Assembly (NCBI GenBank): GCA_965221695.1
Contig: OZ244905.1
Span: 2,701,384 to 2,765,383, forward strand
DNA from: Gammaproteobacteria bacterium
GTDB lineage: Bacteria; Pseudomonadota; Gammaproteobacteria; Eutrophobiales; Eutrophobiaceae
Direction: 5' to 3'
DNA length: 64,000 nt
Positions within the stretch are counted from its first letter, which is position 1. Every line of letters begins with the position of its first letter. This document shows, one piece after another, positions 3,978 through 60,917 of this stretch. The position numbers and the translations under genes are program-made. The notes beneath the pieces were generated by a model, which saw only the letters and a program-made list of their open reading frames with translations, had not been told where the DNA came from and ran no database searches.

Positions 3978-3982
3978 ATTAC

Positions 3983-22516: not shown

Positions 22517-22538
22517 AAGAGAACAGTTTATCCGAAAC

Positions 22539-22705
22539 TTAAGGAACCTCTGATTAAGTCAGAGGTTCCTACGATACAAGGATGTATCGTCAATATCAAT
22601 GACTGTAAGGCATTGATATTGTGAGGAAAACAAAAATCGCATTTTTGTTTTCCGTACTCTGACAAGTCCTGGATGGACTTGTTCAGAGTTTTCTTAAGTT
22701 CCAGG
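22539..22705. repeat. MITE-like multi-hairpin element (family 2), reverse orientation
   Basis: Reverse complement of the 2926-3110 and 60746-60898 copies. Lies directly upstream of the lhr start. Confidence 0.8.
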
Positions 22706-24034: not shown

Positions 24035-24170
24035 CAGTATAGCACAGGCCAAGGTATTGCCCCGTACCACTCCCGCAACAGCGGGAGTCCAGTCAAATAA
24101 GTGTCGCCCGCAGGGCGACTCATCTGTTTACTGGATTCCCGTTTTCACGGGAATGGTACGGAGCGCACGT
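24035..24170. repeat. REP-like nested-palindrome element (family 1), reverse orientation
   Basis: Tail ggccaaggtattgcccc precedes ccgtaccactcccgcaacagcgggagtccagtcaaat, gtcgcccgcagggcgac and ggattcccgttttcacgggaatggtacgg. Confidence 0.75.
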
Positions 24171-24343
24171 CAGTTAGTAAAACGTACACAAAAAACCAAT
24201 CGACACCGAAGCCCTTGATTTAGTACACTGTACCATGTTGGTAGACGGGAGTAATCGGAAGATTGCTCCCGTTTTATATGTGTATTGCTATAGCCTGAAT
24301 TTTCTATCAGTTGATGCGAAGTTCGGGTGAATGGAGGAATTTG

Positions 24344-29251: not shown

Positions 29252-29866
29252 ATGTCTAAAAGTTCCAAACGCTGGCTGCAGGAACATAACCGGGATAGGT
29301 ACGTTAACCTGGCCCGGAGCCGGCGACTGCGTTCTCGCGCGGTGTTCAAACTTGAGGAGTTGGACCGGCGTCACAGACTGTTCCGCCCGGGACAGACGGT
29401 GCTTGACCTGGGCGCGGCGCCGGGTAGCTGGTCAGCCTACGTGGCTGAAAAGGTTAGGCCCGACGGCAAAGTCATCGCGGTCGACTTGCTGGCGATGCGG
29501 CCTATTGCCGATGTGATCTTCCTGCAAGCTGACCTGAGCAATGCAGCCAACCTGCAGAATTGTATCGCCCGGCTGAGCGAATACCGCGTTGACCTTGTAA
29601 TTTCTGATATGGCCCCCAATTTATCAGGCATAGCTGCCGCGGATCAGGCCAACAGTCTGAAACTGGCGGAAACCGCTCTCCGAATAGCCTGTTCGGCGCT
29701 GCGCGGTAACGGGCATTTTCTGGTCAAGCTGTTTCAAGGAGCTGACAGCGACGCATTCAGAAAGCAATTGACGGAGAAATTTGCTAAAGTATCAGTGAGC
29801 AAGCCGAAGGCGTCGAGGACGAACTCCAGTGAGGTATACATCCTGGCAAAAGGTTATGAGGTTTAA
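29252..29866 (+). CDS. rlmE: 23S rRNA (uridine2552-2'-O)-methyltransferase RlmE (FtsJ)
   Basis: SSKRWLQEHNRDRYV..RSRAVFKLEELD..VLDLGAAPGSWS SAM-binding motif. Confidence 0.9.
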   Translation: MSKSSKRWLQEHNRDRYVNLARSRRLRSRAVFKLEELDRRHRLFRPGQTVLDLGAAPGSWSAYVAEKVRPDGKVIAVDLLAMRPIADVIFLQADLSNAANLQNCIARLSEYRVDLVISDMAPNLSGIAAADQANSLKLAETALRIACSALRGNGHFLVKLFQGADSDAFRKQLTEKFAKVSVSKPKASRTNSSEVYILAKGYEV

Positions 29867-29984
29867 GAAAGCTTTGAACAAGTCCATCGTTGATCTGTCA
29901 GGTGATGCAAACAATGTAAGTGATAGGATGTATGCTGGCAGGCGCTCGTCCGTTTGTTGAGATAAAGCTCAGGCATAAGGCGTT

Positions 29985-36260: not shown

Positions 36261-36347
36261 GGAGAGGTGCCAGAGTGGTTGAATGGGGCAGACTCGAAAT
36301 CTGTTGTACGCGTCAGCGTACCGTGGGTTCGAATCCCACCCTCTCCG
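36261..36347 (+). tRNA. tRNA-Ser (anticodon CGA)
   Basis: Folds by eye into a cloverleaf: acceptor ggagagg/cctctcc, 3-bp D stem, anticodon loop ctCGAaa, long variable arm gtacgcgtcagcgtac and T-arm cgtgggttcgaatcccac. CCA is not encoded. Confidence 0.85.
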
Positions 36348-36701
36348 TAACATTCATGCCACAGGCGCATCTGGCGCCTGTGGCATGAATGTTGATGCAA
36401 TGGGGTTCGAACCCACGGTAATTAAATACGGGTTCGACAAATTCGCTGGGAGCGAATTTGAACAGCGTAGCTGGCCCCGGAGGGGCAAACTACATGGATG
36501 TAGTTTGTAATCCCACCCTCTCCGTAACATTCATGGCACAGGCGCTTCTGTCGCCTGTGCCATGAATGTTGATGCAATGGGGTTCGAACCCACGGTAATT
36601 AAATACGGGTTCGACAAATTCGCTGGGAGCGAATTTGAACAGCGTAGCTGGCCCCGGAGGGGCAAACTACATGGATGTAGTTTGTAATCCCACCCTCTCC
36701 G
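36348..36701 (+). repeat. two tandem 177-bp direct repeats, each ending in a 17-nt copy of the tRNA-Ser 3' end (att-like)
   Basis: Units 36348-36524 and 36525-36701 each contain a perfect 13-14 bp stem hairpin (catgccacaggcgc..gcgcctgtggcatg vs catggcacaggcg..cgcctgtgccatg, with compensatory gcc<->ggc changes), a gggttcgaaccc palindrome and a terminal aatcccaccctctccg. Confidence 0.85.
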
Positions 36702-36705
36702 CCAT

Positions 36706-37896
36706 CTAATAGTCCGGTAAAGTCCGGAGTCTTCCAAGCGCTTCAATGAAATGTGCTAGTGACAGGATGGTTGTGTCCTGGCTGCCGGGGAATGTATCTT
36801 CGCCAGTGTAAACAACAAATTTCTGTTTTACCTTTAAGTCTTCACAGGCCATGTGAAAGCCTTTTTTCAAGGTTGGAGTTCGGCTTGCTTTGATCTCAAC
36901 GGCCCAGTATTCATCAAGACCAAACTCAATTACCAAATCAATTTCTGCCCCAGCAGATGTGCGATAGAAAAACGGATGAGCGCTTGAAGGTAAGGCGTTA
37001 ATAATGGTCTCAATGACAAACCCCTCCCAGCTTTTTCCGAATATAGGATGCCCCAACAAAGCTTCATAATTCGGAATTTGCAGCAAGGCATGCACAAGAC
37101 CGCTATCGCGTACATAGGTACGTGGTGATTTCACCAGCCGTTTTTTGACGTTCCCATGCCAAGGCTCTAGCCTGCGAACCAATAACAAATCAACCATGAG
37201 GTCCAGATATCGACTAACGGTGACACTCTCTACGCCAAGAGAGCTTGCGAGTTTTGACGCGTTCAGTAGTTCACCTTGTGTATGGGCAAGCATGGTCCAA
37301 AAGCGCATCAAGGTCGTTGCTGGAATTCTTGGTCCTAGCTGAGGGATGTCTCGTTCCAGATAGGTGCGAATAAAATTCTGCCGCCACTGGTGACTGGCCG
37401 CATCATCTTCAGCGGCATAGCTGTCGGGAAACCCACCACGTATCCAGAGCTTTTGTAAGGGCTCTCCGGATGTTTCTTCAATTTCAAAAAGGTTTAAGCC
37501 AGTCAGTTCAGAGTAATGAATGCGGCCAGCAAGGCTCTCAGAGCTTTGTTTTAGCAACTCATTGGTTGCCGATCCTAAAACAAGAAAGCGTCCGTTTCCG
37601 CGCCCCTCACGACGTCTGGCATCAATGATTCCGCGCAGTGACATAAACAAATCAGGGTAGCGTTGGACCTCATCGAGAATGACCAGCTTATCTGCATGTA
37701 GTTCTAGATAGTGGGCAGGGTCTTTGAGCTTTTGGAAATCCTCTGGGTTCTCGAGATCCAAATAAACAGATGGTTGCCCTTTGGCGATCTCATGGGCAAG
37801 CGTTGTCTTGCCAATCTGGCGCGGGCCAAGAATGGCAACAGCCGGATTTTGACTGAGACTTTTGATGATTTTCTGTGTAAGCTCTCTTTCATACAT
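36706..37896 (-). CDS. AAA+ ATPase, DUF4143-containing (COG1373-like)
   Basis: Walker A AILGPRQIGKTTLA, Walker B LVILDEVQ and a C-terminal DUF4143-like region. Start set at MYERELTQ (ORF-track start is 37971). Confidence 0.65.
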   Translation of the reverse strand: MYERELTQKIIKSLSQNPAVAILGPRQIGKTTLAHEIAKGQPSVYLDLENPEDFQKLKDPAHYLELHADKLVILDEVQRYPDLFMSLRGIIDARRREGRGNGRFLVLGSATNELLKQSSESLAGRIHYSELTGLNLFEIEETSGEPLQKLWIRGGFPDSYAAEDDAASHQWRQNFIRTYLERDIPQLGPRIPATTLMRFWTMLAHTQGELLNASKLASSLGVESVTVSRYLDLMVDLLLVRRLEPWHGNVKKRLVKSPRTYVRDSGLVHALLQIPNYEALLGHPIFGKSWEGFVIETIINALPSSAHPFFYRTSAGAEIDLVIEFGLDEYWAVEIKASRTPTLKKGFHMACEDLKVKQKFVVYTGEDTFPGSQDTTILSLAHFIEALGRLRTLPDY

Positions 37897-38276
37897 GCTA
37901 GCAATACTAACACAAAATATTAAATATGCAAGGTAAATGTTTTTGTGGTGATCTGTTTCCAATGAAGGCAAAGCGGGATTAGAACCCGCGATACGGTACC
38001 GTGTTCACAACAAAAACCGGCGCTTGGCGAGGAAGGTGTACAGGCGGGTGGTGAACAAGTCGCCGGTACGGCGAACTTTGCGAGGCACAAACCTCTTATC
38101 ACCCAATGTAATTCGGTTTGTATAGTCCGCAACATCCGTAATTGGTTTTGAAAATCCTGTGTCTATGGACAACCCCCCCATACTTGATTAGCATAAGTCA
38201 TAAGGAGGACCTATCGTGAACGTTGATTTCGTGACAAAGCGCCAGTCTGACAATCTCATGCAAATGCCGACCATCC

Positions 38277-38684
38277 ATGTCCAGGATTCGTTGTTATAGT
38301 ATCGGTCGAGACCCCTCCGCATCCATCGTACTGCGTCATGAGACGGTGTCGCGCAGGCATGCAGAGTTGATTCCCGTATCCGGCGGGCAGGTATACGTCA
38401 CGGATTGCGCCAGCGCCTGCGGGACTTTCATCGATAAGGGCAGGCGCTGGGAGAGGCTTACCCAGGATTTCGTCGGCGCAGGCGGCAGGGTGCGTTTCGG
38501 CGAGGTTGAGGTCAGCGTGCAGAGTCTGCTGGCGGACATTGCCCGCTTGCCTGCCGGCGGTGGAACGGGTCCCGGCGGTTCGGCGGAGCCCGGCGGTACC
38601 CCAGGCGCCGATAAGAAGAAACATGTGGATGCCGGCCGCGGGGTCATGCGCGACCCGGAAACGGGCGAGCCGATTCCCATGTAA
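38277..38684 (+). CDS. FHA-domain protein (small, cytoplasmic; Pro/Gly-rich tail)
   Basis: YSIGRDPSASIVLRHETVSRRHAEL....GTFI is an FHA core (G-R...S-R-xH...NG-T). First gene of the 8-gene cluster. Confidence 0.7.
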   Translation: MSRIRCYSIGRDPSASIVLRHETVSRRHAELIPVSGGQVYVTDCASACGTFIDKGRRWERLTQDFVGAGGRVRFGEVEVSVQSLLADIARLPAGGGTGPGGSAEPGGTPGADKKKHVDAGRGVMRDPETGEPIPM

Positions 38685-38699
38685 TCGGACAGACAGACC

Positions 38700-39473
38700 A
38701 TGAACCAGAGAATGAGGATATTCATAGGGGCGCTGGGCGCGGGCGTGATCTTCATCGGCCTGCTCAGCCTGTTTTTCTCCGAAGGTTTCTTCGCCGACTT
38801 CCTGCTGGACCGGAATTCGAAGTTCATGCCCTACCCGGTCACGATACAGAATATCATGTGGCTGGTGTTCTTCATCGGGGCGGGAGAATTGCTGTCGCGC
38901 TACCTGCAGACGGACCGGGAAATCAGCCAGATCCGCCTGGGACTGTTGCCGGAGGACAGCACAACCCTATTGCGCAAGCAAGATCTGGGCGGCGTGTACC
39001 AGCGCGTCAAGGAAACCATGCACCCGGCGCCGGGCGCTGCGGAGGATTCCTATTTCCTGCAACGCCTGCTGTCCCGTTGTATCCTGCAGTTCCAGGTCAG
39101 CGGCGCCATTGATAAGGCAAACAACATGTTCAACTCCAGCCTGGAGTTGTTCCAGCACGAGGTCGAGCTGAGGTACAATGCCATTCGCTATATCGTCTGG
39201 CTGATCCCGACCCTGGGGTTCATCGGCACCGTGGTCGGCATCGCGCTGGCGCTCAGCAACGCCGGCAGCGTCGACAACTTCCAGGACCCCACCTTGCTGA
39301 AACAGCTTACCCAGAGTCTCGGCGTAGCGTTCTTTACCACCTTGCTGGCCTTGCTGCAATCCGCGGCGCTGATGTTCGCGCTGCATGTCGTACAAGGACA
39401 GGAGGAAGCGTCGCTGAACCGGATAGGGCAGTATTGCCTGGATAACCTGATTAACCGGTTGTACGAGACTTGA
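38700..39473 (+). CDS. MotA/TolQ/ExbB-family proton-channel subunit
   Basis: Topology TM1 - ~130-aa cytoplasmic domain - TM2/TM3, with the family-typical IVWLIPTLGFIGTVVGIALAL and GVAFFTTLLALLQSAALMF helices. Confidence 0.7.
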   Translation: MNQRMRIFIGALGAGVIFIGLLSLFFSEGFFADFLLDRNSKFMPYPVTIQNIMWLVFFIGAGELLSRYLQTDREISQIRLGLLPEDSTTLLRKQDLGGVYQRVKETMHPAPGAAEDSYFLQRLLSRCILQFQVSGAIDKANNMFNSSLELFQHEVELRYNAIRYIVWLIPTLGFIGTVVGIALALSNAGSVDNFQDPTLLKQLTQSLGVAFFTTLLALLQSAALMFALHVVQGQEEASLNRIGQYCLDNLINRLYET

Positions 39474-39493
39474 TGGGGGTCGCCTGCGCGAGA

Positions 39494-39517
39494 CAAATCG
39501 GCAGGACAGCCGATTTG
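39494..39517 (+). terminator. hairpin after the MotA-like gene (possible terminator/attenuator)
   Basis: caaatcggc-aggaca-gccgatttg, perfect 9-bp stem. No U-tract follows. Confidence 0.3.
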
Positions 39518-39652
39518 CGCAGCGACTGCTGCCCGCAGGGTTGTATCCAGGGAAGGATGCAATGAGTGACGGAAGGAGAGAGGAATGACGGGTGGGTTCA
39601 AGAATGACGGTTAAGGGGCGAAGGGAGGTGTCGGCAAGTGGGTGTCGGCAAG

Positions 39653-39680
39653 TTGAACGCAGGGTGGTTTTCTGTTAAAT
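39653..39680 (+). promoter_or_regulatory. putative sigma-70 promoter for the second transcription unit of the cluster
   Basis: ttgaac-N16-ttaaat. Preceded by a direct repeat gtgtcggcaagtgg/gtgtcggcaagttg at 39628-39655. Confidence 0.3.
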
Positions 39681-39715
39681 TTTCATCAACCGCAACACCA
39701 GAAGGGGAGGACATC

Positions 39716-40375
39716 ATGCCGGTAAAACGCGATGCGGACGGGAACATCATAAAGGAACAGACAAGAACTACCGGAGTGGGTGATCCGGTGTTGCCGACCT
39801 TGGGGCGCTCCACTGTCGGCGCCACGGTCGGCCCCGGCAGGTCTCCCGAGACCAACCCCGGCCAGTCATCGGGTTATGAGGCCCAGACGGTGCTGGCAGG
39901 TTCGCCCCGTGTCGCGGAAGGGGAAGCCAGGACCCGGATCTACCGGCCCGGCAGGACGGGGCGGCAACAGCCGGAGACACCGGCTCCAGGTACGGGCGCT
40001 GAGGACGCGACGTCCTCTGCCATGGACGACCCGCCCGTAGGCTGGCTGGTCGTCGTCAGTGGGCCGGGACAGGGGAACTACATGGCCGTCGGCAACGGTT
40101 CGAATTCAGTCGGACGCGATGAGCGCGAGCGAGTGCGCGTGGATTTCGGTGACGAGTTGATCTCCCGCAGCGACCATTCAACGATCACCTACGATCCCAG
40201 GGGTAAGAAGTTTTACCTGCAGCACGGCGCCGGAAAAAACCTCACTTACCTGGAAGGCAAACCTGTCCTGGCGCCGACCGAACTGCCCGGGTTTTCCCGG
40301 ATCACGATTGGGAACACCGAATTGCTGTTCATCCCGCTCTGTTGCGATCAGTTTGACTGGGACGACTACACGTAA
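39716..40375 (+). CDS. FHA-domain protein (disordered Pro/Gly-rich N-terminus, C-terminal FHA)
   Basis: GWLVVVSGPGQGNYMAVGNGSNSVGRDERERVRVDFGDELISRSDHSTITYDPRGKKFYLQHGAGKNLTYLEGKPV is an FHA core. ATG start lies 6 nt after gaaggggagg; ORF-track start is GTG 39638. Confidence 0.7.
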   Translation: MPVKRDADGNIIKEQTRTTGVGDPVLPTLGRSTVGATVGPGRSPETNPGQSSGYEAQTVLAGSPRVAEGEARTRIYRPGRTGRQQPETPAPGTGAEDATSSAMDDPPVGWLVVVSGPGQGNYMAVGNGSNSVGRDERERVRVDFGDELISRSDHSTITYDPRGKKFYLQHGAGKNLTYLEGKPVLAPTELPGFSRITIGNTELLFIPLCCDQFDWDDYT

Positions 40376-40384
40376 CAGGTCGTT

Positions 40385-41368
40385 ATGAATGCCCTCAAGC
40401 AGTGGGTGTCGGGAGAGCAGATCCAGGGAGACCGAAATTACCAGGAAGACTATTTCTCGCTCAGCCTGCTTTCCCAGGGCCGGGAACCTCCGGATGAAGA
40501 CTGCCTGCTGCTCGTGCTGGCCGACGGCATGGGCGGACATGCCGGCGGCGCCGTTGCCAGCGAGACGGTAGTCAAGGCATTCCAGGAGGGCTTCAACCGC
40601 GATGCAACCGGGATCGCAGAGCGTTTCAGCGCCGGCATCGACACCGCCAACAACGCCGTCAGGGAAAAACAACAGGCCGATCCGGAACTGTCCGAGATGG
40701 GTTGCACCCTGGTGGCCGCGCTGGTGGTCGGGTCGACCCTTTACTGGACCAGCGTCGGCGATTCCATACTGTGGCTGTGCCGGCAGGGACATTTGCAGAG
40801 ATTGAATGCGGACCATTCCATGAAACCGCTGTTGCTGGACCTGGTCGAATTGGGCAGGATGACCGAAGAAGAGGCGCTGAGCGATTACCGGATCAACCAG
40901 CTACGCTCGGCCATTTTCGGCGAGGAGGTTCAGCTGATTGACATGAACGCGGACGGTTTCCAACTGGAGAGTGGTGATCTCGTTTTACTGGCCAGCGACG
41001 GCCTGGAAACCCTGTCCGGGCAAAGCATGACAGATGTCATCGAGGCCCGCGCGGACGATGCCGATGAGATAGTGAACGCCCTGCTTGACGCAGTTGCCAT
41101 GGCGGGGGTGCGCGGGCAGGACAATACTACGGCGCTGGCGTACCGGGTCGGCCAGGGGCATGATTCACTGCACGGCGTACTGGCGGGCATCAGCACAGAT
41201 GACAAGGATGCCGTATTCGAGCAGCAAGTGAAACCCTCCCGAACCTGCGAGTTGCGCCCGGCACAGGAACAGGAAGCGCCGGCAAAGCGGCCCGGCATCT
41301 TCGCCCGAGCCATACATGCCTTCTCCGGTAGACCGGCGCGTCAAGACACTCGTGACGGGAAGCAATGA
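40385..41368 (+). CDS. PP2C-family Ser/Thr protein phosphatase
   Basis: LLVLADGMGGHAGGAVAS, MGCTLVAALV, YWTSVGDSILWL and LLASDGL are canonical PP2C/PPM motifs including the metal-binding Asp residues. Confidence 0.8.
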   Translation: MNALKQWVSGEQIQGDRNYQEDYFSLSLLSQGREPPDEDCLLLVLADGMGGHAGGAVASETVVKAFQEGFNRDATGIAERFSAGIDTANNAVREKQQADPELSEMGCTLVAALVVGSTLYWTSVGDSILWLCRQGHLQRLNADHSMKPLLLDLVELGRMTEEEALSDYRINQLRSAIFGEEVQLIDMNADGFQLESGDLVLLASDGLETLSGQSMTDVIEARADDADEIVNALLDAVAMAGVRGQDNTTALAYRVGQGHDSLHGVLAGISTDDKDAVFEQQVKPSRTCELRPAQEQEAPAKRPGIFARAIHAFSGRPARQDTRDGKQ

Positions 41369-43104
41369 CAGCAATACGAGCATTGATGTTGTGTGCGCTT
41401 CTGGTGTACCTGCCGGCAGGCAACAGCCAGACGACCGGTGATGACGCAGAAGCGCCGGCTGTTTCCTCTGCCACTGCACCCGCTGTGCCTGCTGATACGC
41501 CCGTGACAACGGAGGACCCAGCGCAAATAGCCGCCCCCTCAGCGGATACAGCCACGGCGATTGCCGCGGTTGTGCAGGTTCCCGAACCCGTAGATTTCAG
41601 TGCGGTGCGGCCCCACCTGGTGGTCATAAGAGAAGGGATGGACGCCGCCGCACGTCGCACGCCGGGATTCAGCATCAGCGACCAGGGCCATATCCTGACT
41701 TATTCCGGAGAATTACGCGCCCGGGAGTACTACCTTGTCTCGGTTGCAGGCGGTCAGGTCTTTACTGCTGCGCTGCTTGATGAAGATGAAGACACCGGCC
41801 TCATGCTACTGAGGATCGCAGGAGAAGGGCACGGCCTCACCGCCCTGAAGTTTGCCAGAACGACGCTGGAAGCCGCGGTGCCGCTCTATGCAGTACGGTT
41901 CGACCCGGTGCGGGCGGAGCCGTTCGTGCCCGTTCCCGGCACGGTCACGCGGTTGCCTGCAACGGATGAGGAGACACCGGCAATCGTGCATAATGCCCTG
42001 TTCAATACGGCGGCCGCCGGGACGCCCTTGTTCAACCGTTGTTACCAGGCGGTCGGTGTCAGCGTGCTGCAAAGGAAGGGCTTCCCGCCGAGAACTCTCG
42101 ATCCCCAACAACAGGGTAGCGCCATCTCCCTGGCGGCCTACTCGTTGAGCGTGATCCTGGCGTCGGCCAACCTGACCCTGCCCATCGCTGAGGCGGAGTG
42201 CCAGAGTGCGGAGGAGGAGGCGCGACTGCGGCTGGAACAACTTCAGCAGGAAAAAGAGGCGGAGCGGGCAAATGCCGAAGCCCTGGCCCTTGCCGCCGCG
42301 GAGGAAGCGCTGCGCAGGGAGGCGGTAATGAACCTGGAGCGGGAAGCAGCGCAACAGCAGCTTGAACAGGCGCGCCAAGAGAAAGAAGCGGCCCTGCAGG
42401 CGGAGCGGGCAAGTGCCGAAGCCGATAAGCGCCGTTTGGAAGAAGAAGCGCAGCAACAACTTGAACAGGCGCAGCAGGAGAAGGAACAGGCCCTGCAGGC
42501 ACAACAGCAGGAGAATGAACAGGCTCTGCAGGTGGAGCGGCAGGAGACCGAACAGGCCCGGCGGGAAGCCCGGCAGGCGACGCATACGGGGAAACAGATC
42601 CTGCTGTTATCGCTAGCGGTCGTCTTCGTCCTGGCGCTGGTCTTCTTCCTGGTCCTGCGCGCCAGGCGTAAACACCTGCAACGCGTGGAACAGGAAAAAC
42701 AGCAGTTCGCCCAGGACCTGGACAGGGCAGAGGCAGACCTGTCAGACGCCTCCGAGAGGGAGCAGCTACGCGCCGGCGCCCCCGACGTGTTTATCGAGGG
42801 TGTCACGCCGCAGAACGAGCGCATCGCCCTGAAAATACCCGGCGCCTCACTGGTCAAACCCTCAGGTGTCACGGTAGGCAGGAGTCCCTCCGAATCCGAG
42901 TTCGTCATCAATCACGAACAGGTCTCCCGCCGCCATTTCCGCCTCATGCTGGTGTCTGGGCAGGTGATGATCGAAGATATGGGCTCGACCAATGGGACCG
43001 TCGTGAACGGCGTGCCCCTCAGTCCCGGCGCCCGGCAGACGCTGGGCGACGGCAGCCGCATGCAGGTCGGGCGCGTGACGATGACGGTGCGGATAGGTCT
43101 CTGA
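41365..43104 (+). CDS. bitopic membrane protein: signal peptide - degenerate trypsin-like (pseudo-protease) periplasmic domain - long coiled-coil - TM - cytoplasmic C-terminal FHA domain
   Basis: Periplasmic part resembles the S1 fold (GHILTYSG..; DTGLMLLRI; AAAGTPLFN in place of GNSGGPL), with the catalytic His and Ser replaced. EQARQEKEAALQAERASAEADKRRLEEEAQQQLEQAQQEKEQALQ heptad region, TM ILLLSLAVVFVLALVFFLVL, then FHA (VGRSPSESEFVINHEQVSRRHFRL..GSTNGTVVNG). Confidence 0.6.
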   Translation: MTAIRALMLCALLVYLPAGNSQTTGDDAEAPAVSSATAPAVPADTPVTTEDPAQIAAPSADTATAIAAVVQVPEPVDFSAVRPHLVVIREGMDAAARRTPGFSISDQGHILTYSGELRAREYYLVSVAGGQVFTAALLDEDEDTGLMLLRIAGEGHGLTALKFARTTLEAAVPLYAVRFDPVRAEPFVPVPGTVTRLPATDEETPAIVHNALFNTAAAGTPLFNRCYQAVGVSVLQRKGFPPRTLDPQQQGSAISLAAYSLSVILASANLTLPIAEAECQSAEEEARLRLEQLQQEKEAERANAEALALAAAEEALRREAVMNLEREAAQQQLEQARQEKEAALQAERASAEADKRRLEEEAQQQLEQAQQEKEQALQAQQQENEQALQVERQETEQARREARQATHTGKQILLLSLAVVFVLALVFFLVLRARRKHLQRVEQEKQQFAQDLDRAEADLSDASEREQLRAGAPDVFIEGVTPQNERIALKIPGASLVKPSGVTVGRSPSESEFVINHEQVSRRHFRLMLVSGQVMIEDMGSTNGTVVNGVPLSPGARQTLGDGSRMQVGRVTMTVRIGL

Positions 43105-43818
43105 ATGAACCGTTCATTGTGGTGCGGTTTGATATTTCTCAGCCTCTGGGGTCTGAGTTACCAGGGTGGCGCGGATATTGATGACCAGGAAGAACATTTC
43201 AGGGAGGAGCAGGGGGCGCAACAGGATCAGGAAGCCGCGCGACGGGAACGCAAGCGTGCCCGACAGGCAGAACAGGAGGCGCTCCGGCAACAGGAAGCGG
43301 CGCGCCAGCGCGTGGTTCAGCAAAATCTGTTCGTAACCTTGCTGGCTCTGTTGACCCTGCTGGCCTTGATACTGGCCTTGAGAAAACCCCGGCAGGCCAT
43401 TGTTTGGGCCGCCGGCCACGCAATCGAACCACTCAGTCGGCGCTTCAAACCGGCAGGGCGCTTGCCCGCGCCGGGCGCAGCCCGCGCCGGGACGGCAAAC
43501 GTCGTACTTACGGGCTTTGACAGCCGGGGCAAACCGGTGAATATCCCGTTGCCGGAGGAGGAACTGGATCGGAAACGGGGCGGTTTCACCCTGGGGCGCC
43601 ATCACCTGCTGGTCGATACGGCGCTGGACGATGACCGGATATCGAAGCGCCATGCCCGGTTCACCCGCAACGGTCACGGCTATTTTATCGAAGACCTCAA
43701 TTCGAGAAACGGCACTGTGATCAACGGTGAGCAACCCTGCGCGCCGTTCAAACCCATGCGAATCAGGCCCGGCGACACGGTGCGGCTAGGCGGCATGGAG
43801 TTGCTCGTATCGGCCTGA
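43105..43818 (+). CDS. bitopic membrane protein: signal peptide - periplasmic coiled-coil - TM - cytoplasmic C-terminal FHA domain
   Basis: N-terminal hydrophobic leader, charged coiled-coil (EQGAQQDQEAARRERKRARQAEQEALRQQEAARQ), TM FVTLLALLTLLALILAL, then FHA (LGRHHLLVDTALDDDRISKRHARF..NSRNGTVING). The start codon abuts the previous stop. Confidence 0.6.
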   Translation: MNRSLWCGLIFLSLWGLSYQGGADIDDQEEHFREEQGAQQDQEAARRERKRARQAEQEALRQQEAARQRVVQQNLFVTLLALLTLLALILALRKPRQAIVWAAGHAIEPLSRRFKPAGRLPAPGAARAGTANVVLTGFDSRGKPVNIPLPEEELDRKRGGFTLGRHHLLVDTALDDDRISKRHARFTRNGHGYFIEDLNSRNGTVINGEQPCAPFKPMRIRPGDTVRLGGMELLVSA

Positions 43819-43831
43819 TTCGGAAGCGCCC

Positions 43832-44635
43832 GTGAGGCTACGCAGCAAGGAGATCAATGTCTTCAACATGTCCGCGCTGGACCTGTTCGCCTCCGCGCTG
43901 GGTGCGTTTATCCTTATTTCCGTGGTCTTGTTTCCCTATTTTCCCAACACCGGCGATTCCCAGGAACGGGTGGACGAGGTCAAGGCGCAACTGGCTGAGG
44001 CCAATGCGCGATTGGAGGAAACCAGCGCCGAACTGGAGCAGGTCCGCGCCCGGTTGAACCCCGCCCTGGAACAAGAACTGCAGGTCGCACGAGAACAACT
44101 CGGCGCGTGCCAGGCCCGACTCCGGGAGGCAGAGGCCGCGCTAAACGCCTGCCAGGTTGAACAGCGAGAAGTTGCATCATTGGATTCCGCGCTGGGCGCC
44201 TGCGAGAACCGCAACCGGCAGATGCAACAGGAACTGCAATCCTGCGAGAATGAATTGCGCAAGAAATTCGTGCTGGTCGTGATCAGCTGGGGCACGCCGG
44301 ACGATATCGACCTGCACGTGATCGATCCGCAAGGCCGGGAGTTCTTCTACGGGCGCAAACACATCCCCGGTTCCCTGGCAAAACTGGAAGAGGACAACAC
44401 CAGAGGTCCCGGCAATGAGATCTGGCTGCACCCGGCCGCGGAGCCGGGCGCCTACGAGGTTTACTACAAATATTACGATGGATCAACCGGCAACGTGCAG
44501 GTGCGCGGCGCGGCGCTGACGCCCCGCGGCAGGACGGAGTTGCCGGACATCACTCTGCGGTACGTGGGTGAGAAGCCCCTGGTGGCAACCATTTTCGTCA
44601 ATGAGGATGGCAACGCTGAGGTGAGGGCATGGTAA
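43832..44635 (+). CDS. ExbD/TolR/MotB-like membrane anchor fused to a coiled-coil and an unknown beta-rich C-terminal domain
   Basis: N-terminus KEINVFNMSALDLFASALGAFILISVVLF matches the TolR/ExbD TM signature (E-I-N-x-x-P/N-x-x-D-V/L), including the conserved protonatable Asp. Followed by a ~110-aa coiled-coil and a ~120-aa domain (..DIDLHVIDPQGREFFYG..GAYEVYYKYYDGSTGN..). Confidence 0.5.
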   Translation: MRLRSKEINVFNMSALDLFASALGAFILISVVLFPYFPNTGDSQERVDEVKAQLAEANARLEETSAELEQVRARLNPALEQELQVAREQLGACQARLREAEAALNACQVEQREVASLDSALGACENRNRQMQQELQSCENELRKKFVLVVISWGTPDDIDLHVIDPQGREFFYGRKHIPGSLAKLEEDNTRGPGNEIWLHPAAEPGAYEVYYKYYDGSTGNVQVRGAALTPRGRTELPDITLRYVGEKPLVATIFVNEDGNAEVRAW

Positions 44636-44661
44636 CGCGGCGGGAGGGGAATTTTCCGCAT

Positions 44662-44693
44662 TGACACGATTTCCCAGGCCCCCTTAGAATACG
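44662..44693 (+). promoter_or_regulatory. putative sigma-70 promoter for the kinase gene, followed by a hairpin
   Basis: ttgaca-N18-tagaat. A ccggtgaca..tgtcaccgg hairpin lies at 44700-44730, inside the 130-bp gap before the kinase start. Confidence 0.35.
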
Positions 44694-44766
44694 GTTTAAC
44701 CGGTGACACAATTTAATTCTGTCACCGGATTTACGGGGCAAACATAACAAACAAAGACGGCCTTCC

Positions 44767-47373
44767 ATGAACTCCGACCACCTGCATGCCCTACCGCCCG
44801 GCACGCGCCTTGAAGAATTTCGGCTGGAGGCGCAGGTGGGCGCCGGCGGGTTCAGCATCACCTATCGGGCCTATGACGAATTACTGGACAAGGTGGTGGC
44901 CGTCAAGGAATACCTGCCGCGGGATTTCGCCACCCGCACCGCCGGCAATACAGTGGCGCCCATATCCGATGCGGACGCCCGGGATTACCAGTGGGGCCTG
45001 ACCCGGTTCCTGGACGAGGCCCGCACGCTGGCCAGGTTCGACCATCCGCATCTCAACAAGGTGCGTCGTTTCTTCGAGGCCAACGGCACGGCCTACATGG
45101 CGCTGGAGCATATCCATGGCGAGACCCTGGCTACCCGGTTAAGCCGCGAGCGGCGCTTGCCGGAAACGGACCTGCTGCGCCTGCTGGAGGAAGTGTTATC
45201 GGGACTTGCTGTGATTCACGAGGCTGGCTACGTGCACCGGGACATCAAACCGGGCAACCTGATGCTGCGCGAGGAAGACGACAGCATAGTGCTGCTGGAC
45301 TTCGGCGCCGCGCGCCAGGCAGTGGGCCAGAGTTCCAAGTCAATCACCAGCATCCTGACACCGGGCTATGCCCCGATAGAGCAGTACGAAAGCAAAGCGG
45401 ACGCCGTCGGACCGTGGAGTGATATCTATGCATTGGGGATGGTGGCGTACAAGTGCATCAGCGGCGCGGGTGACGGGGAGTTGCCCGATGCCGTGACCCG
45501 GGCCCGCTCCCAACGCAAAGGGGGTAAGGACCTGGCGATGGCGGCGGAGGTGGGCCAGAGCAGGTACAGTGCGAAGCTGCTGGCGGCGATAGACTGGGCC
45601 ATCGAGGTGGATGAGGAGTCCCGGCCGCAGGGGGTGGGTGAGTGGAGTGAGGCGCTGGTGGGGAGCGGGAGCAAGCAACGAGCCGCCAAACCGGCGCCTA
45701 ATACAACGGCACGGTCTGCAAAGGCTCCGGCCACCGAGCGCCAGGGTATGAATTGGTACAGCATGGCCCTGACCGCGGTGATAGTGGTGTTACTGGGAGC
45801 GAGCGCCTGGCAGGGCTGGCGGCTGTATCAGGGGATGCCCGGGCTTGGCGTAGACGGCGCCGCCACGGCAGTTGAGTCGCAGGCAAACGCACAGGGCAAA
45901 GCAGAGTTAGCAGCAGAACCCTATGCACAAACACCAACGGTAACGCCAGAACAAGGCTCCGGGCCTGACGCGCCCACACTGGCCGCGCCGGTTGAGGAAG
46001 ACGAAGTCGCCCGGCTGCTGGCTGCAGCCGAAGCCGACTTGGAGGCAAGACGCCTGACCAGTCCGCAGGGGAACAACGCCTGGGAGAAGTACCGGCGGGT
46101 ATTGGGTTTATCCTCCGCGCACCCCGAGGCCATAGCGGGGATGGAGCGGGTGATCGGGAGTTACATGGACCTGTTCGGCGCTGTTCTGGAGCAGGAGGAT
46201 TTTGACCAGGCGGAGGGGTATCTCTCACGCATCCGCGACCTGCACCCGGATTCGCCACTCTTGTTGACGGGGAAAGAACGTTTGGAACAAGCCCGGCAGG
46301 CTCATGTCGAGCGGTTGGCGGAAGAAGAGCGCCTGCGCCAGGCCGAGGAAGCGGCGCGCCAGGCGGAACAGGAGCGCCAGCGAATAGCACAGGAAATCGA
46401 GAGACACTGGCAGTCCTTTGAGACGGCAATGCAGCAAGACAAATTGGACCGGGCGGAAGACAGTCTCAACCTCGTGCGGGAGTTGGACTCGGACGCGCCG
46501 GGGTTAGCGGATGCGGAACGACGCCTGTCACAGGCGCGGGAAGCATCCCGGCAGAAGGCGCTGCAGTATGCCGGTGAGATGGTCTCCATCCCTGCCGGCA
46601 GTTTCCGCATGGGGGACCTGACAGGCGCTGACGCTGAGAAACCGGTCCACAGTGTGCGAGTCGCGGCCTTCAGCATGGGCAAGTATGAGGTAACGGTGGG
46701 CCAGTTCCAGCGGTTTGTGGAGGCGACGGGGTACCTCACGGATGCGGAGCGTTATACGGACGGCAAAGCAGGTTGTTCTGTCTATACAACAAAAAGATGG
46801 AAGTACACCGAGGGCAAGAGTTGGCGCAATCCGGGGTTTTCAGTCGGAGACAAGCACCCGGTGGTGTGCGTGAACTGGAATGATGTGCAGGCGTTCGTGA
46901 AGTGGCTGAACGGCAATACCGATGGGGATTTCCGCTTGCCGACCGAGGCGGAGTGGGAGTATGCGGTGCGCGCCGGGAGCAGTACGAAGTATCATTTCGG
47001 CAATGATGAGTCACAACTGTGCCGGTTTGCCAGCCATGCGGACAGCGGGACGGATATTGATTGGAAAAACAAGTCCTGCTCGGACGGTGTGGGCGAACGC
47101 ACCGCCGAAGTGGGCCGTTACCAGCCGAACAGTTTCGGGCTGTATGACATGCACGGCAATGTCTGGGAGTGGGTGACAGATTGCTGGAATGAGAGTTATG
47201 TGGGCGCCCCGACAGACGGTAGCGCCTGGACGAATGGGGACTGCAGCCGGCGCGTCATTCGGGGCGGGGCCTGGGACAGCTCACCGTGGAACCTGCGTTC
47301 CGCGCACCGTTACGGGAGCTCCCGTTCGAATCACAGCTCTTATCTGGGCTTTCGCTTGGCCCGGGACAACTGA
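44767..47373 (+). CDS. transmembrane Ser/Thr protein kinase with periplasmic coiled-coil region and C-terminal FGE/SUMF1 (formylglycine-generating enzyme-like) domain
   Basis: Hanks kinase motifs (VAVKEY; HRDIKPGNLML; LLDFGAAR; TPGYAPIEQ), TM ALTAVIVVLLGASAW and the FGE-sulfatase fold signature (MGKYEVTVGQFQRFV; FRLPTEAEWEYAVRAG; YDMHGNVWEWVTDCW; RVIRGGAWDS). Confidence 0.85.
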   Translation: MNSDHLHALPPGTRLEEFRLEAQVGAGGFSITYRAYDELLDKVVAVKEYLPRDFATRTAGNTVAPISDADARDYQWGLTRFLDEARTLARFDHPHLNKVRRFFEANGTAYMALEHIHGETLATRLSRERRLPETDLLRLLEEVLSGLAVIHEAGYVHRDIKPGNLMLREEDDSIVLLDFGAARQAVGQSSKSITSILTPGYAPIEQYESKADAVGPWSDIYALGMVAYKCISGAGDGELPDAVTRARSQRKGGKDLAMAAEVGQSRYSAKLLAAIDWAIEVDEESRPQGVGEWSEALVGSGSKQRAAKPAPNTTARSAKAPATERQGMNWYSMALTAVIVVLLGASAWQGWRLYQGMPGLGVDGAATAVESQANAQGKAELAAEPYAQTPTVTPEQGSGPDAPTLAAPVEEDEVARLLAAAEADLEARRLTSPQGNNAWEKYRRVLGLSSAHPEAIAGMERVIGSYMDLFGAVLEQEDFDQAEGYLSRIRDLHPDSPLLLTGKERLEQARQAHVERLAEEERLRQAEEAARQAEQERQRIAQEIERHWQSFETAMQQDKLDRAEDSLNLVRELDSDAPGLADAERRLSQAREASRQKALQYAGEMVSIPAGSFRMGDLTGADAEKPVHSVRVAAFSMGKYEVTVGQFQRFVEATGYLTDAERYTDGKAGCSVYTTKRWKYTEGKSWRNPGFSVGDKHPVVCVNWNDVQAFVKWLNGNTDGDFRLPTEAEWEYAVRAGSSTKYHFGNDESQLCRFASHADSGTDIDWKNKSCSDGVGERTAEVGRYQPNSFGLYDMHGNVWEWVTDCWNESYVGAPTDGSAWTNGDCSRRVIRGGAWDSSPWNLRSAHRYGSSRSNHSSYLGFRLARDN

Positions 47374-47463: not shown

Positions 47464-49089
47464 TCACCGCATCGATTTTTGCAGTACCGAGAAGTTTCTT
47501 ACCCAAGGCTCTAGTTTGCGTATTTCATCGGGCAAATCATCTATAGCTCTTTCGGCAAGCTCATAGTCATGGTACAGACCATAAAACACGCGATAGTAAG
47601 TTATCTGCTCGATCTCGATCCTGATATAGGCAATCTGCTGTGTCAGGTTATTCTGTTTGAGGAAATTTAGCACACGTTCTTCACTGGAAAAGCTGGCCAG
47701 TTGCAAAGTGTAGTGATACGGAGATTGTGCGGCGACCCAGTCTTCCCGCCTGATAGCGGTCTCACCGGCGTCAGAGGCATCCTCGCCAGCCAACTCATCT
47801 TCATCGGAAATGACCTCGCTGGTGGTCGCAACCAGATCGGAAATGGCCTCTGGTACAGCCGCAATGTATTCCGCTGTCGCTGGTACAGGGCTGGTGTCCG
47901 CGGTCTCTGCAACAGTCTCCGGCGTTTCCTCCTCCGCGGCGTTCAGCGCGATCTCGGCGGTGTCCTCATCCGTCTGAGCAGCTACGATGGTCGGCGTTTC
48001 TTCGACAGCAGGCGCTGTGTCTTCTGCTTCAGTTGCCTCAGCAGCAGTTTGAGCAAGGCTGGTCTCCGCGGTCTCTGCAACGATCTCCGGCGCTTCCTTC
48101 TCCGCATCGAACAGTGCGGTCTCGGCTGTGTCTTCGTCCGACTGAGCGGCTATGGTCGGCGCTTCCTCCTGCGTGACGCTCAGTGCGGTCTCGGCAGCGT
48201 CCTCATCCGGCTGAGCAGCTATAATCGGTGTTTCCTCGACGGCAGGTACCGTATCTTCTTCAGTTGCCTGCGCAAAGGGTTCTGTTGTTTCCTGCATTGC
48301 AGGCGCTTGCGATACGGTCGTGTCCTCTTCAATATCGACATAAGCAAGTCTTTGTAAGCTTTCTTCTGCCTGTTGCAGACCCCCGGCGGCCGCGCGTTGA
48401 TACCATTTTTTCGCCTCCACCAGGTCCTTTTCTACCGCGTAACCATTTTCATAGTACACGCCCATGTTGAATTGCGCCTGTGGGACATCGGCGTCAGCGG
48501 CTTTTCTGAACCAGAGTAGCGCTACATCATAGTCCTGGTCGACGCTGTAACCGAAGGCGTACATGACAGCCAGGCTGTATTGCGCATTTCCGTTTCCCTG
48601 CTCTGCTGCTTGGCGGAAAAGCCGGGTGGCTGTTTCATAATCCCGGGTAATCTGCTCACTGCCGTTGAAGTACAAAAGGCCAAGGTTGAACAGCGCATCC
48701 GATTGCCCGGCCGCCGCGGCCAGCTTCCACCATTGCATGACTTTAGACGGGTCTTTTGTGACACCATCACCGTGCAAGTACTTGACGCCGAGCTCGAATT
48801 GGGCGTCGGGGTGCCCTTGATCCGCCGCAAGCAAGTACCATTTTACTGCTTCGGCAGAATCTGCGTTAACGCCATGGCCATAGTCATACATGAGGCCAAG
48901 CATTCTTTGCGCATCCGAGTTGCCGTCCTCAGCCAGTGGTTGCAGTATTTCGTAGGCTTTTTCGTAGTCTTTGGCCAGGTAGGCCTGTCTCGCCGTTTCA
49001 AAAGATTGCGCCAGCACAGGGCCGGAAAATACCAACCCCAATAACAGGAAAGGAATTAACTTGGTCAGCATAAACCGTATCTTTGACAT
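47464..49089 (-). CDS. secreted Sel1-repeat (SLR) protein with acidic tandem-repeat linker and C-terminal SPOR (septal peptidoglycan-binding) domain
   Basis: Signal peptide, then >=6 Sel1-like repeats (A..W..AA.QG...AQ..LG.MY..G.GV..D), a D/E/T/A-rich repetitive region and a C-terminal SPOR-like fold (YTLQLASFSSEERVLNFLKQNNL...YYRVFYGLYHDYELAERA). Confidence 0.65.
   Translation of the reverse strand: MSKIRFMLTKLIPFLLLGLVFSGPVLAQSFETARQAYLAKDYEKAYEILQPLAEDGNSDAQRMLGLMYDYGHGVNADSAEAVKWYLLAADQGHPDAQFELGVKYLHGDGVTKDPSKVMQWWKLAAAAGQSDALFNLGLLYFNGSEQITRDYETATRLFRQAAEQGNGNAQYSLAVMYAFGYSVDQDYDVALLWFRKAADADVPQAQFNMGVYYENGYAVEKDLVEAKKWYQRAAAGGLQQAEESLQRLAYVDIEEDTTVSQAPAMQETTEPFAQATEEDTVPAVEETPIIAAQPDEDAAETALSVTQEEAPTIAAQSDEDTAETALFDAEKEAPEIVAETAETSLAQTAAEATEAEDTAPAVEETPTIVAAQTDEDTAEIALNAAEEETPETVAETADTSPVPATAEYIAAVPEAISDLVATTSEVISDEDELAGEDASDAGETAIRREDWVAAQSPYHYTLQLASFSSEERVLNFLKQNNLTQQIAYIRIEIEQITYYRVFYGLYHDYELAERAIDDLPDEIRKLEPWVRNFSVLQKSMR
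47890..48280. repeat. intragenic imperfect tandem DNA repeats (~170-215 bp units with sub-repeats) encoding the acidic linker of the Sel1-SPOR protein
   Basis: Recurring gcggtctcggc(a/t)g(c/t)gtcctcatccg(g/t)ctgagcagcta..atggtcggcg(c/t)ttc blocks. Translated repeats are DEDTAETAL..EAPEIVAETAETS. Confidence 0.6.
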
Positions 49090-50520: not shown

Positions 50521-50676
50521 AGCGTCGGGTTTCCTTTAATTCAGGTAGGGACGGTTTTACGCGCTCTGACAAGTCCAGGATGGACGTGTTCAGAGTTTCC
50601 CAAAATCATAAAATGTTGACATAGATTACAAAAACACGGCATTATCTGCTTACTATTTTATGGGGGTGTTATAAAA

Positions 50677-60747: not shown

Positions 60748-60898
60748 GGAAACTCTGAACAAGTCCATCCTGGACTTGTCAGAGTACGGAAAACAAAAAT
60801 GCGATTTTTGTTTTCCTCACAATATCAATGCCTTACAGACATTGATATTGACGATACATCCTTGTATCGTAGGAACCTCTGACTTAATCAGAGGTTCC
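60746..60898. repeat. MITE-like multi-hairpin element (family 2) between the MFS transporter and the MBL hydrolase
   Basis: Same orientation and ~95% identity to 2926-3110. It starts at the MFS stop codon. Confidence 0.8.
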
Positions 60899-60917
60899 TT
60901 AGTTTTGGAGACAACTT

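Follow-up and report, generated by a model that had tools for sequence, protein, structure and literature searches.

To our knowledge only a handful of 5:2 ion-driven motor systems are understood, namely flagellar Mot, Ton, Tol, Gld of the type IX secretion system (Gld/T9SS), Agl and Zorya, and we know of none among them that is controlled by Ser/Thr phosphorylation. A further group was described in 2025, in which TolQ-like genes without TolR pair with Asp-bearing "transpore helix"-vWA (TPH-vWA) proteins, the predicted dimeric axle of a 5:2 motor (Mol Biol Evol 2025, section 8; PMC12204202). In other work, conflict systems have been proposed in which FGE/C-type-lectin sensors, diversified by diversity-generating retroelements (DGRs) and combined with trypsin-like effectors and kinases, detect invaders (eLife 2020, PMC7159879; PNAS 2024, PMC10907252). 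Here we analyse an eight-gene locus at positions 38277-47373 (+ strand) of a 64,000-nt stretch of contig OZ244905.1 from a Gammaproteobacteria bacterium; the whole stretch is called the window below. We think it on balance probable, by a modest degree, that the locus encodes a phospho-gated, proton-driven, horizontally mobile envelope system fed by variable receptor kinases. The motor pair overlaps the TolQ-like/TPH-vWA family and is in that respect already known (PMC12204202). New with respect to the database models, the source annotation and the literature searched are its coupling to a set of Ser/Thr kinase (STK), PP2C phosphatase and four FHA proteins, the stalked protease pair, the TerD-like variant of the head and the variable, DGR-targeted kinases. 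No description of an FHA/STK/PP2C-coupled MotA/ExbB system was found in PADLOC, NCBIfam or that literature.

The locus is filled by eight open reading frames (ORFs), g1 to g8, all co-directional in the ORF list of the window. A preliminary description made from the sequence had seen eight genes packed tightly save for two gaps, and had called FHA folds in g1, g3, g5 and g6, a MotA/ExbB protein in g2, PP2C in g4, a degenerate S1-like domain in g5 and a kinase with an FGE domain in g8; the ORF coordinates and Pfam bear all of this out. The junctions measure 15 bp (g1-g2), 9 bp (g3-g4), 0 bp (g5/g6) and 13 bp (g6-g7), and g4 and g5 overlap by 4 bp. Of the larger gaps, g7-g8 is 131 bp long and g2-g3 is 164 bp by ORF, or about 242 bp with the true start of g3, which is probably the conserved Met27 at window position 39716. 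The source annotation names the proteins only as "hypothetical protein" or "MotA/TolQ/ExbB family".

The main evidence that these genes form one system is their recurrence. Homologues of g2 number 2323 in a set of 5.8 billion proteins, and a scan of one genome per species (185,579 species genomes) gives 301 g2 loci, of which we analysed the best 80. Linkage was tested both by tblastn with the eight proteins and by all-against-all clustering of 1419 ORFs. Seven gene families, and essentially nothing else, are conserved around g2 in the 80 loci: g7 is found near it in 61, g4 in 48, g5/g6 (a single paralogous family) in 47, kinases in 46, g3 in 44 and g1 in 42. This clustering is far beyond chance. 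The carriers span at least six phyla (Gammaproteobacteria, Binatia, Latescibacterota, Acidobacteriota, Gemmatimonadota, Alphaproteobacteria), so that the gene set seen in the window recurs well outside its own lineage. They include SAR86, Pseudohongiella, Halieaceae/Azotimanducaceae, Chromatiales, the cultured strain LSUCC0112 (L030), Candidatus Binatia, Latescibacterota, Vicinamibacterales, Gemmatimonadota and Rhodospirillales; judged by names alone, many are metagenome-assembled genomes (MAGs) pointing to sponge or coral hosts and others are abundant marine heterotrophs (SAR86, Pseudohongiella). Several genomes hold more than one copy (L009/L047, L026/L041, L078/L080). The order g1-g2-g3-g4-g5-g6-g7-g8 of the window becomes g5-g6-g7-g1-g2-g3-g4 in Latescibacterota, g1-g2-g3-g4-g7-g8-x-g6 in SAR86 and Pseudohongiella and g2-...-g7-g1 in L052 and L058. 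Such permutation points to selection for co-location, and a set kept together through rearrangement and across phyla speaks for a single functional system.

A variant of the locus is seen in about 22 Gemmatimonadota/Longimicrobiales loci (including L032, L036, L038, L048 and L071), where the g2 homologue is accompanied by a divergently transcribed TPH-vWA gene and a gene for a leucine-rich repeat protein. The TPH-vWA product consists of the TPH segment, a Pro/Cys-rich linker and a vWA domain, the upstream protein has a peptidoglycan-binding-like segment, a coiled coil and leucine-rich repeats, and these loci have no FHA, PP2C or kinase gene. In L066 (Ca. Spongiihabitans) only g2 and g7 of the set are present.

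The channel subunit g2 (38700..39473, 257 aa) matches Pfam PF01618 over residues 132-238 with 41.7 bits against a cut-off of 22.9, and four hydrophobic segments can be read from its sequence. In hhalign its pore-helix motif IPTLGFIGTVVGIA falls on SPYIGLFGTVWGIM, the TolQ pore helix of E. coli, and on the corresponding helix of ExbB, with an E-value of ~0.004. In the g2 alignment (A1) the most conserved element is ...WLIPTLGFIGTVVGIA...; the GTVxG helix is conserved, a second invariant helix bears T213/T214, and T171, T177, T213 and T214 are all invariant. Judged by these matches, g2 is a divergent member of the MotA/TolQ/ExbB family.

The gene that accompanies g2 most often, g7 (43832..44635), encodes its putative dimeric partner. 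The first 42 residues of the product, MKxRSREINIFSMSALDLFASALGAFILIAVVLFPYFPNTGDS, are the best-conserved part of any locus protein. They contain a near-invariant helix (43862-43939) with Asp17 (codon 43880-43882), and F11, L16, D17, L18, A20, A22, G24, F26, I29 and P35 are invariant in 59 of 59 full-length g7-family partners although the heads of these proteins differ. The basic N-terminus (MRLRSKE as read from the sequence) fits a single transmembrane (TM) helix with its N-terminus inside. With a hidden Markov model of this N-terminal TPH segment a partner is detected in 73 of the 80 loci; of the seven loci without one, five are short contigs. The preliminary description had paired a MotA/ExbB-like protein at 38700 with an ExbD/TolR-like one at 43832. 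Its first half stands, as g2 passes the MotA_ExbB cut-off, but the ExbD/TolR label fails as a family assignment for g7 because no ExbD, TolR or MotB profile matches. Pfam and NCBIfam searches with g7 return coiled-coil noise only, and its one database similarity is a weak match to PADLOC ZorB1 (E 3.8e-4, residues 6-70).

An AlphaFold 2 (AF2) model from the single g7 sequence has a pLDDT of 56 and is unusable; a model from a 49-sequence alignment reaches 78 and was used here. It predicts a TM helix at residues 11-36, one helix of ~100 residues with four conserved Cys, and a beta-sandwich at 148-266 (~44264-44632), and it has neither the periplasmic alpha-beta domain of ExbD/TolR nor an OmpA-like peptidoglycan-binding domain. 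The predicted head has the TerD-type beta-sandwich fold, with TerD proteins as its best fold matches, so the C-terminal domain that had been called novel is TerD/DUF2135-like in fold. By sequence it is a member of neither TerD (PF02342) nor DUF2135 (PF09906): the head alone has no Pfam match even at E up to 10, and its relatives give sub-threshold DUF2135 matches (~20.5 bits against 22). With the head as query, phmmer finds 948 relatives in 1.84 billion representative proteins. One of them, P0325, joins a bona fide MotB_plug N-terminus (54 bits) and a long coiled coil to a g7-type head and is 33% identical to g7 over 211 residues. A MotA_ExbB gene overlaps with its end the gene for P0325, and TamB and TamA lie on one side and a 1159-aa S8 peptidase on the other. 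In P0313 a g6-type trypsin domain is fused to a g7-type head, and further head relatives are fused to caspase, M15 or C-type-lectin modules. A vWA head replaces the TerD-like one in 34 of the 59 g7-family partners, also in loci with the full FHA/PP2C/kinase set (L052, L058, and as tandem pairs in L011 and L013).

The invariant Asp helix, the co-occurrence, the weak ZorB match and the MotB_plug protein with the same coil and head together argue that g7 is the dimeric partner of g2. It would then work like the transmembrane part of ExbD, TolR and MotB while belonging to none of these families, and g2 and g7 very probably form a 5:2-type proton motor with an axle that carries an exchangeable adhesion head. 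On the metagenome contigs L081-L084 (~7162-9248) a MotA_ExbB gene is followed by a MotB_plug/coiled-coil/TerD-like-head gene, between TamB/TamA (Omp85) and a 1159-aa S8 peptidase; this is a different motor locus and a further motor-protease pairing.

Two paralogues, g5 and g6, bear FHA domains on the far side of the membrane from a periplasmic N-terminal region. The g5 product (41365..43104) has a signal peptide, a dead trypsin-like domain (~41665-42060; Trypsin_2 28.4 bits, cut-off 27.6), a coiled coil of ~125 aa, a TM helix and a cytoplasmic FHA domain (~42868-43071; 60.6 bits). In the protease domain TNxHV is replaced by TYSGEL and GNSGGP by AAAGTP. The g6 product (43105..43818, 237 aa) has a signal peptide, a short charged segment, a TM helix and a cytoplasmic FHA domain (Pfam, 63.1 bits) and is without any protease domain in the window, while its relatives are 400-540 aa long. 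In 33 of 33 loci with two paralogues a regular-expression test finds TNxHV and GNSGGP in the downstream copy, and neither the His nor the Ser motif in the upstream one; regular expressions alone also find both motifs in the g6 orthologues of 38 loci. The consistent split suggests that a pseudoprotease and a protease made up the ancestral unit, both mounted on a coiled-coil stalk and anchored by a TM helix, with an FHA domain in the cytoplasm. Measured against these orthologues, g6 descends by truncation from an S1 protease-coil-TM-FHA protein that looks active, and in the relative L002 no more than a relic of this protease domain is left. The window lineage has lost the live protease domain cleanly, and the locus acts here without an active protease of its own. 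In their TM-FHA parts g5 and g6 are similar to mycobacterial FhaB/FipA, with NCBIfam scores of 56 and 52 bits (cut-off 125), residues 413-573 of g5 covering nearly the whole FhaB model. As read from the sequence, their TM helices contain no His, and their topology is opposite to that of TolA/TonB-type transducers.

The remaining genes supply the signalling layer. FHA domains read phosphothreonine (pThr), and the Arg/Ser/His triad that binds it can be read in all four FHA domains of the locus (g1, g3, g5, g6). The g1 product (38277..38684) is a small cytoplasmic FHA protein of 135 aa (Pfam FHA 50.3 bits) with a Gly/Pro-rich tail, encoded beside g2 in 42 loci, and the cytoplasmic product of g3 (39638..40375) is disordered in its N-terminal half and has its FHA domain at the C-terminus (27.5 bits; alignment of 44 orthologues). 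A C-terminal motif of g1, R-[DN]-P-x-T-G-E-[IP]-I (GvrRnp.TGEiI), and an N-terminal motif of g3, MPvyRgpDGkIIEEkT, are conserved; they contain a similar short motif, each at the end nearest g2 in gene order. The PP2C Ser/Thr phosphatase g4 (40385..41368) scores 50.4 bits with PP2C_2 and 140 bits with the Stp1-type model of NCBIfam, which is below its equivalog cut-off, and has the catalytic motifs ADGMGGH, VGDS, ASDGL and DNTT, conserved across 50 orthologues. The receptor Hanks-type Ser/Thr kinase g8 (44767..47373) consists of a kinase domain (~44821-45666; Pkinase 110 bits) with intact VAVK, HRDIKPGN and DFG motifs, a TM helix, helical repeats and a periplasmic FGE-sulfatase domain of C-type-lectin fold (~46573-47364; 229 bits). 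From their motifs both enzymes look active. Linked kinases occur in 46 loci, with one to seven per locus, and their periplasmic domains vary: among 73 kinases of at least 450 aa, 30 have FGE-sulfatase, 19 ankyrin, nine Sel1 and five PG_binding_1 domains, and PDZ, PEGA and TerB occur once each.

In relatives of the window locus some of these sensor domains are targets of a DGR. In L002, whose g2 is 92% identical to that of the window, the locus is followed by an Avd-reverse transcriptase (RT)-template repeat (TR) cassette with the RT motifs IGNLTSQ and YVDD. The TR (20325-20443, 119 nt) matches the 3' ends of three kinase genes, the variable regions (VRs), and 16-19 of the 17-20 TR/VR mismatches fall at TR adenines. 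The same signature, directed at kinase FGE domains, is present in the Latescibacterota loci L047 and L014, of which L047 also has an Avd-RT cassette in the locus. The 3' end of g8 in the window (47245..47362, + strand) is homologous to the L002 variable region, with 78% identity to the L002 TR over 86 nt and conserved VR flanks. The third DGR-targeted kinase of L002 (16823-18767) shifts frame inside its VR, one ORF ending at 18706 and the FGE C-terminus continuing at 18528-18767, which would be either an assembly error or a pseudogene from mutagenic homing. L004 has an Avd fragment at the locus edge.

The locus also appears to move between strains. A nearly identical strain, the gammaproteobacterial MAG L001, is 98% identical across the locus and 85% over ftsH-carB a few kb upstream. 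Over window positions 27222-48161 the comparison is a mosaic, with ~85% identity over carB-greA-ftsJ-ftsH (27.2-31.9 kb), 94% at 32-33.5 kb and 98% at 33.5-48 kb, including the whole locus. The difference between the locus and the flanking housekeeping genes suggests a recent exchange, by recombination or transfer, of the locus-bearing segment between the window strain and L001.

In the mechanism that we propose, the g7 helix would insert in the g2 pore and supply the conserved Asp, and the two proteins would most likely assemble as a proton-driven motor of the 5:2 type, by which rotation or tension is exerted in the periplasm. There g7 would form a disulfide-capable shaft of ~15 nm, tipped with an adhesion head of metal-binding type (TerD/DUF2135-like here, vWA in many relatives), and g5 and g6, as type-I membrane proteins, would hold their (pseudo)protease domains on stalks near the motor with FHA tails in the cytoplasm. 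The presumed direction of control runs from the receptor kinase or kinases (g8), which would bind a ligand and then phosphorylate threonines, either their own or those of locus components. By reading these putative phospho-sites, the four FHA domains (g1, g3, g5, g6) would bring the complex together, or clamp it, around the cytoplasmic face of g2, and the PP2C phosphatase g4 would reset the pThr state. The output would be periplasmic, in the form of mechanical work, with or without proteolysis, on a bound target. As the physiological role we favour envelope surveillance for foreign or abnormal proteins, and not motility or nutrient uptake, on the grounds that the sensors vary, that the distribution is patchy and mobile and that a genome can hold multiple copies; no other part of the reading is as weak. 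The periplasm has no ATP and hence cannot run AAA+ unfoldases, and a bolder version of the mechanism, to which we give only a small chance, is a periplasmic "grab-and-cut" machine: the motor turns or pulls the shaft, the head grips a target and the stalked protease pair processes it, the whole being armed by the kinases through pThr-FHA contacts. If this were true, adaptive-like, DGR-rewritable sensing would be wired to a mechanical envelope effector, a new kind of periplasm surveillance.

A number of observations weigh against the phospho-gated motor. Its control by the kinase/phosphatase pair through pThr-FHA contacts is something we infer from gene linkage, and no phospho-acceptor was identified. 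No profile of ExbD (PF02472), TolR or MotB (PF13677 plus OmpA-like) matches g7, hhalign gives TolR/ExbD a probability below 1%, and against PDB chains g7 returns only coiled-coil noise or a chance match to insect Orco; the g2 profile matched no solved MotA, ExbB or TolQ chain among PDB sequences. Since the g6 protease is deleted and that of g5 is dead, proteolysis cannot be an essential output in the window locus. Within the 64 kb of the window there is no RT, Avd, template repeat or partner repeat for the g8 3' end, and its VR-homologous segment shows no differences from the 98%-identical strain L001. The lengths of the g7 and g5/g6 stalks covary with rho 0.68-0.88, but across just the 11 loci that pass the motif filters, which include several close relatives and are non-independent, and we do not rely on this. 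A census of flanking genes (92 proteins) is heterogeneous, with no added conserved partner, no clear defence island and no consistent functional hint. Lastly, L020 (282-9454) and L034 (8059-9303) have g1-g4 and kinases with no g5-g7 within 10 kb.

These points leave room for other explanations. The last of them, with the motor pairs that lack any FHA, PP2C or STK gene in L066 and the ~22 Gemmatimonadota loci and the two intergenic gaps that could hold internal promoters, might indicate no single system at all, a generic STK/PP2C/FHA cluster merely lying beside an unrelated TolQ-like motor operon. We find this very improbable: g2 is bracketed by g1 and g3 in more than 40 loci, at distances of 0-20 bp; the set as a whole has survived at least three different orders and is kept across phyla; the proteins with the periplasmic stalks are the ones that also bear FHA domains; and P0313 fuses a g6-type protease to a g7-type head. 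Hardly credible, in our view, is that the locus is a peripheral piece of a known machine, be it the type VI secretion system with its threonine phosphorylation pathway (T6SS-TPP), Agl-Glt, TonB/Tol-Pal, T9SS or Zorya, with its core elsewhere in the genome. There are weak FHA-level matches to TagH and GltG, weak ZorA and ZorB matches, an FGE domain resembling PorK/GldK and two TonB-dependent receptors in the window; however, the matches are far below family cut-offs (38 against 120, 24 against 650 and 18 against 500 bits), and no core genes of those systems are conserved near the locus in the 80 genomes or present in the 64-kb window.

More serious is a conflict system of the abortive-infection type with the channel as its weapon: an invader in the periplasm is sensed by the variable or hypermutating receptor kinases and the pThr/FHA relay unplugs the g2/g7 channel, the proton gradient collapses and/or the proteases are unleashed, and death or dormancy follows with no mechanical work. 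Predicted conflict systems are said to be marked by DGR-diversified FGE/C-type-lectin sensors, trypsin-like effectors and regulatory kinases (PMC7159879, PMC10907252), and the patchy occurrence across phyla at 52-60% identity, the several copies per genome, the locus at 98% identity between two strains whose flanking housekeeping genes are at 85%, the RT, transposase and SIR2-like genes in some flanks and ZorA and ZorB as the sole defence-database similarity all fit. Yet no PADLOC system model matched, the kinase matches are generic and the flanks consist mostly of ordinary metabolic genes; a simple leak channel gives no ready reason for a long, Cys-stapled shaft with an adhesion head in the periplasm, the proteases are on the periplasmic and not the cytoplasmic side, and the window copy has no DGR or live protease, yet keeps eight intact ORFs. 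We regard this explanation as doubtful. Less likely still is a housekeeping regulator of envelope homeostasis or division, a Gram-negative counterpart of actinobacterial FhaA-FhaB-PstP-PknA/B or of Tol-Pal, whose kinases would sense the state of peptidoglycan or envelope and tune a Tol-like motor for stabilising or remodelling the envelope. The FhaB/FipA-like tails of g5 and g6 (56 and 52 bits), the five linked kinases with PG_binding_1 domains and the position of the window locus among housekeeping genes, next to a Sel1/SPOR gene, speak for it, and related TPH-vWA motors have been read as force transducers towards the outer membrane (PMC12204202). But 301 patchily distributed loci in 185,579 species genomes are a misfit with a core function, there is wide variation in how many copies and kinases are present and in the type of sensor, hypermutation of a sensor by a DGR is unexpected where a self structure is sensed, and no cell-wall synthase or Tol/Pal gene is linked among the conserved neighbours in the 80 loci.

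Around the locus the window is a housekeeping and metabolic chromosome, with hrcA, dnaK, dnaJ, dapB, lhr, carAB, greA, ftsJ, ftsH and serA, a phosphoglucosamine/phosphoglucomutase-family gene, two genes for TonB-dependent receptors, dehydrogenases and enolase-family genes. In agreement with the preliminary description, our gene survey finds no secretion, pilus or flagellar genes in the 64 kb. That description had also placed promoters in the two larger gaps. A motif scan gives a sigma-70-like match of 11/12 (TTGACA-18-TAGAAT, 44661..44690, + strand) in the g7-g8 gap and none in the g2-g3 gap, and a weak match of 9/12 (38166..38194, +) upstream of g1. The number of matches in the promoter/terminator scan is not above that of shuffled sequences; the 44661-44690 match suggests, without statistical support, a separate promoter for the kinase g8.

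Immediately upstream of the locus lies a 1.45-kb segment (36702-38155) with a DUF4143/AAA_14 ATPase gene (36706-37971, minus strand), which is missing from L001 and looks like a strain-specific insertion or deletion. It adjoins a tandem repeat of 177 nt x2 (36323-36676), and the local GC falls to 0.49. The protein encoded next after the locus (47464-49089, minus strand), common to L001, combines Sel1 repeats with a SPOR domain, a kind of domain that binds septal peptidoglycan; Sel1 repeats are also the periplasmic domain of some locus kinases in other loci. In the flanks of other loci, four tandem FG-GAP/FlgD_ig proteins (~710 aa) precede g1 in L020 and a SIR2_2-domain protein is encoded upstream in L034.

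Elsewhere in the window a dispersed intergenic repeat family of up to ~165 nt, with the palindromic core CTCTGAACAAGTCCATCCTGGACTTGTCAGAG, occurs in both orientations (2949-3117, 3813-4001, 22535-22697, 29862-29927, 50554-50604, 60738-60906). In form it looks like a repetitive extragenic palindrome (REP) or a miniature inverted-repeat transposable element (MITE). Copies of a second family, with the hairpin core CCCGCGAAAGCGGGA, lie at 351-651, 11808-11909, 17827-17985 and 24042-24174. Direct repeats of ~100 nt at 13210-13406 and 15322-15648 flank a low-GC stretch (GC 0.475 over 14-18 kb) with an NYN-domain gene (13522-14145), near a UDG-like gene (17125-17781); this stretch may be a small island.

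If the phospho-gated motor is real, a motor with its own kinase, phosphatase and four pThr readers would give a genetic handle on motor switching and would tie Hanks-type signalling to mechanical work in the envelope. The recurrent periplasmic proteases raise the question whether the proton motive force powers regulated proteolysis or unfolding in the ATP-free periplasm, and receptor domains that vary, at times through hypermutation by a DGR, suggest that ligands, external or periplasmic, are recognised in a programmable way. The cultured carrier LSUCC0112 makes experiments feasible. The protease/pseudoprotease pairing and its loss, the variable kinase arrays, the DGR link in relatives and the TolQ-like/TPH-vWA overlap had no place in the preliminary description. 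Its judgement that the locus is not Tol-Pal, TonB, flagellar, Agl/Glt, T6SS-TPP or Zorya holds, as none of them is matched at family level.

Sub-cut-off scores and missing core genes rule out at that level an assignment of the locus to T6SS-TPP, Agl-Glt, Tol-Pal, TonB, T9SS or Zorya, and Ferrigenium and Gallionellaceae papers that appeared as literature matches are unrelated. Compared with Tol-Pal/TonB, no TolA/TonB-type transducer (His-bearing TM helix, Pro-rich linker, TonB_C), TolB or Pal is found among the eight proteins or the conserved neighbours. The Agl-Glt machinery of Myxococcus (AglRQS with GltG) likewise combines a TolQR-type motor with a bitopic FHA protein reaching into the periplasm, but the GltG model NF033760 gives 15-24 bits against 650 and matches the FHA domain only, there are no other Glt genes and the topology is opposite, the FHA domain here being C-terminal after an N-terminal periplasmic domain. 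Zorya, too, has a MotA/MotB-type 5:2 motor outside motility and uptake, as is predicted here, and a long coiled-coil element. Unlike in Zorya, the coil is here periplasmic and on the B subunit, g2 (257 aa) has no long cytoplasmic ZorA tail and g7 no peptidoglycan-binding domain; ZorA models give 14-23 bits (NCBIfam cut-off 500), ZorC, ZorD and ZorE effectors are absent from the locus and its relatives, and Zorya has no kinase/FHA layer.

In T6SS-TPP (PpkA-PppA-Fha1/TagH), as is proposed here, an envelope machine is turned on and off by a receptor Hanks kinase that has a periplasmic domain, together with a PP2C phosphatase and an FHA adaptor. TagH (TIGR03354) scores 38 bits against 120 and no T6SS core genes are present in the window or among the conserved neighbours; the present locus encodes four FHA proteins, of which two are bitopic, and the machine under control would be a proton motor. 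The actinobacterial fhaA-fhaB-pstP-rodA-pbpA-pknA-pknB cluster has the same signalling parts, including a TM-anchored FHA protein of FhaB/FipA type. It differs in that the FhaB score is 56 against a cut-off of 125, the partners here are a motor and (pseudo)proteases and not a SEDS/PBP synthase, and the carriers are Gram-negative lineages in which the locus is patchy and mobile. With the sensors of DGR conflict systems the locus shares the C-terminal FGE domain of its kinases, the DGR variable region in L002, L047 and L014, and the trypsin-like peptidases alongside. Those systems use MoxR-vWA, STAND or GTPase switches and act in the cytoplasm, and MotA/ExbB channels and an FHA relay are unmentioned in their descriptions (PMC7159879, PMC10907252); the window itself has no DGR. 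The closest known counterparts of the motor itself are the TPH-vWA motors. The window partner differs from them in its 100-aa coiled coil and its TerD/DUF2135-like head, and their Idiomarina-type family may belong to another clade; FHA, kinase, PP2C and protease partners are unmentioned in the paper that described them (PMC12204202). The two share a TolQ/ExbB-family gene tightly paired with a single-pass Asp-helix protein in place of any ExbD/TolR gene, and in the g2 family, too, most partners (34 of 59) have a vWA head, sometimes in tandem (L011, L013).

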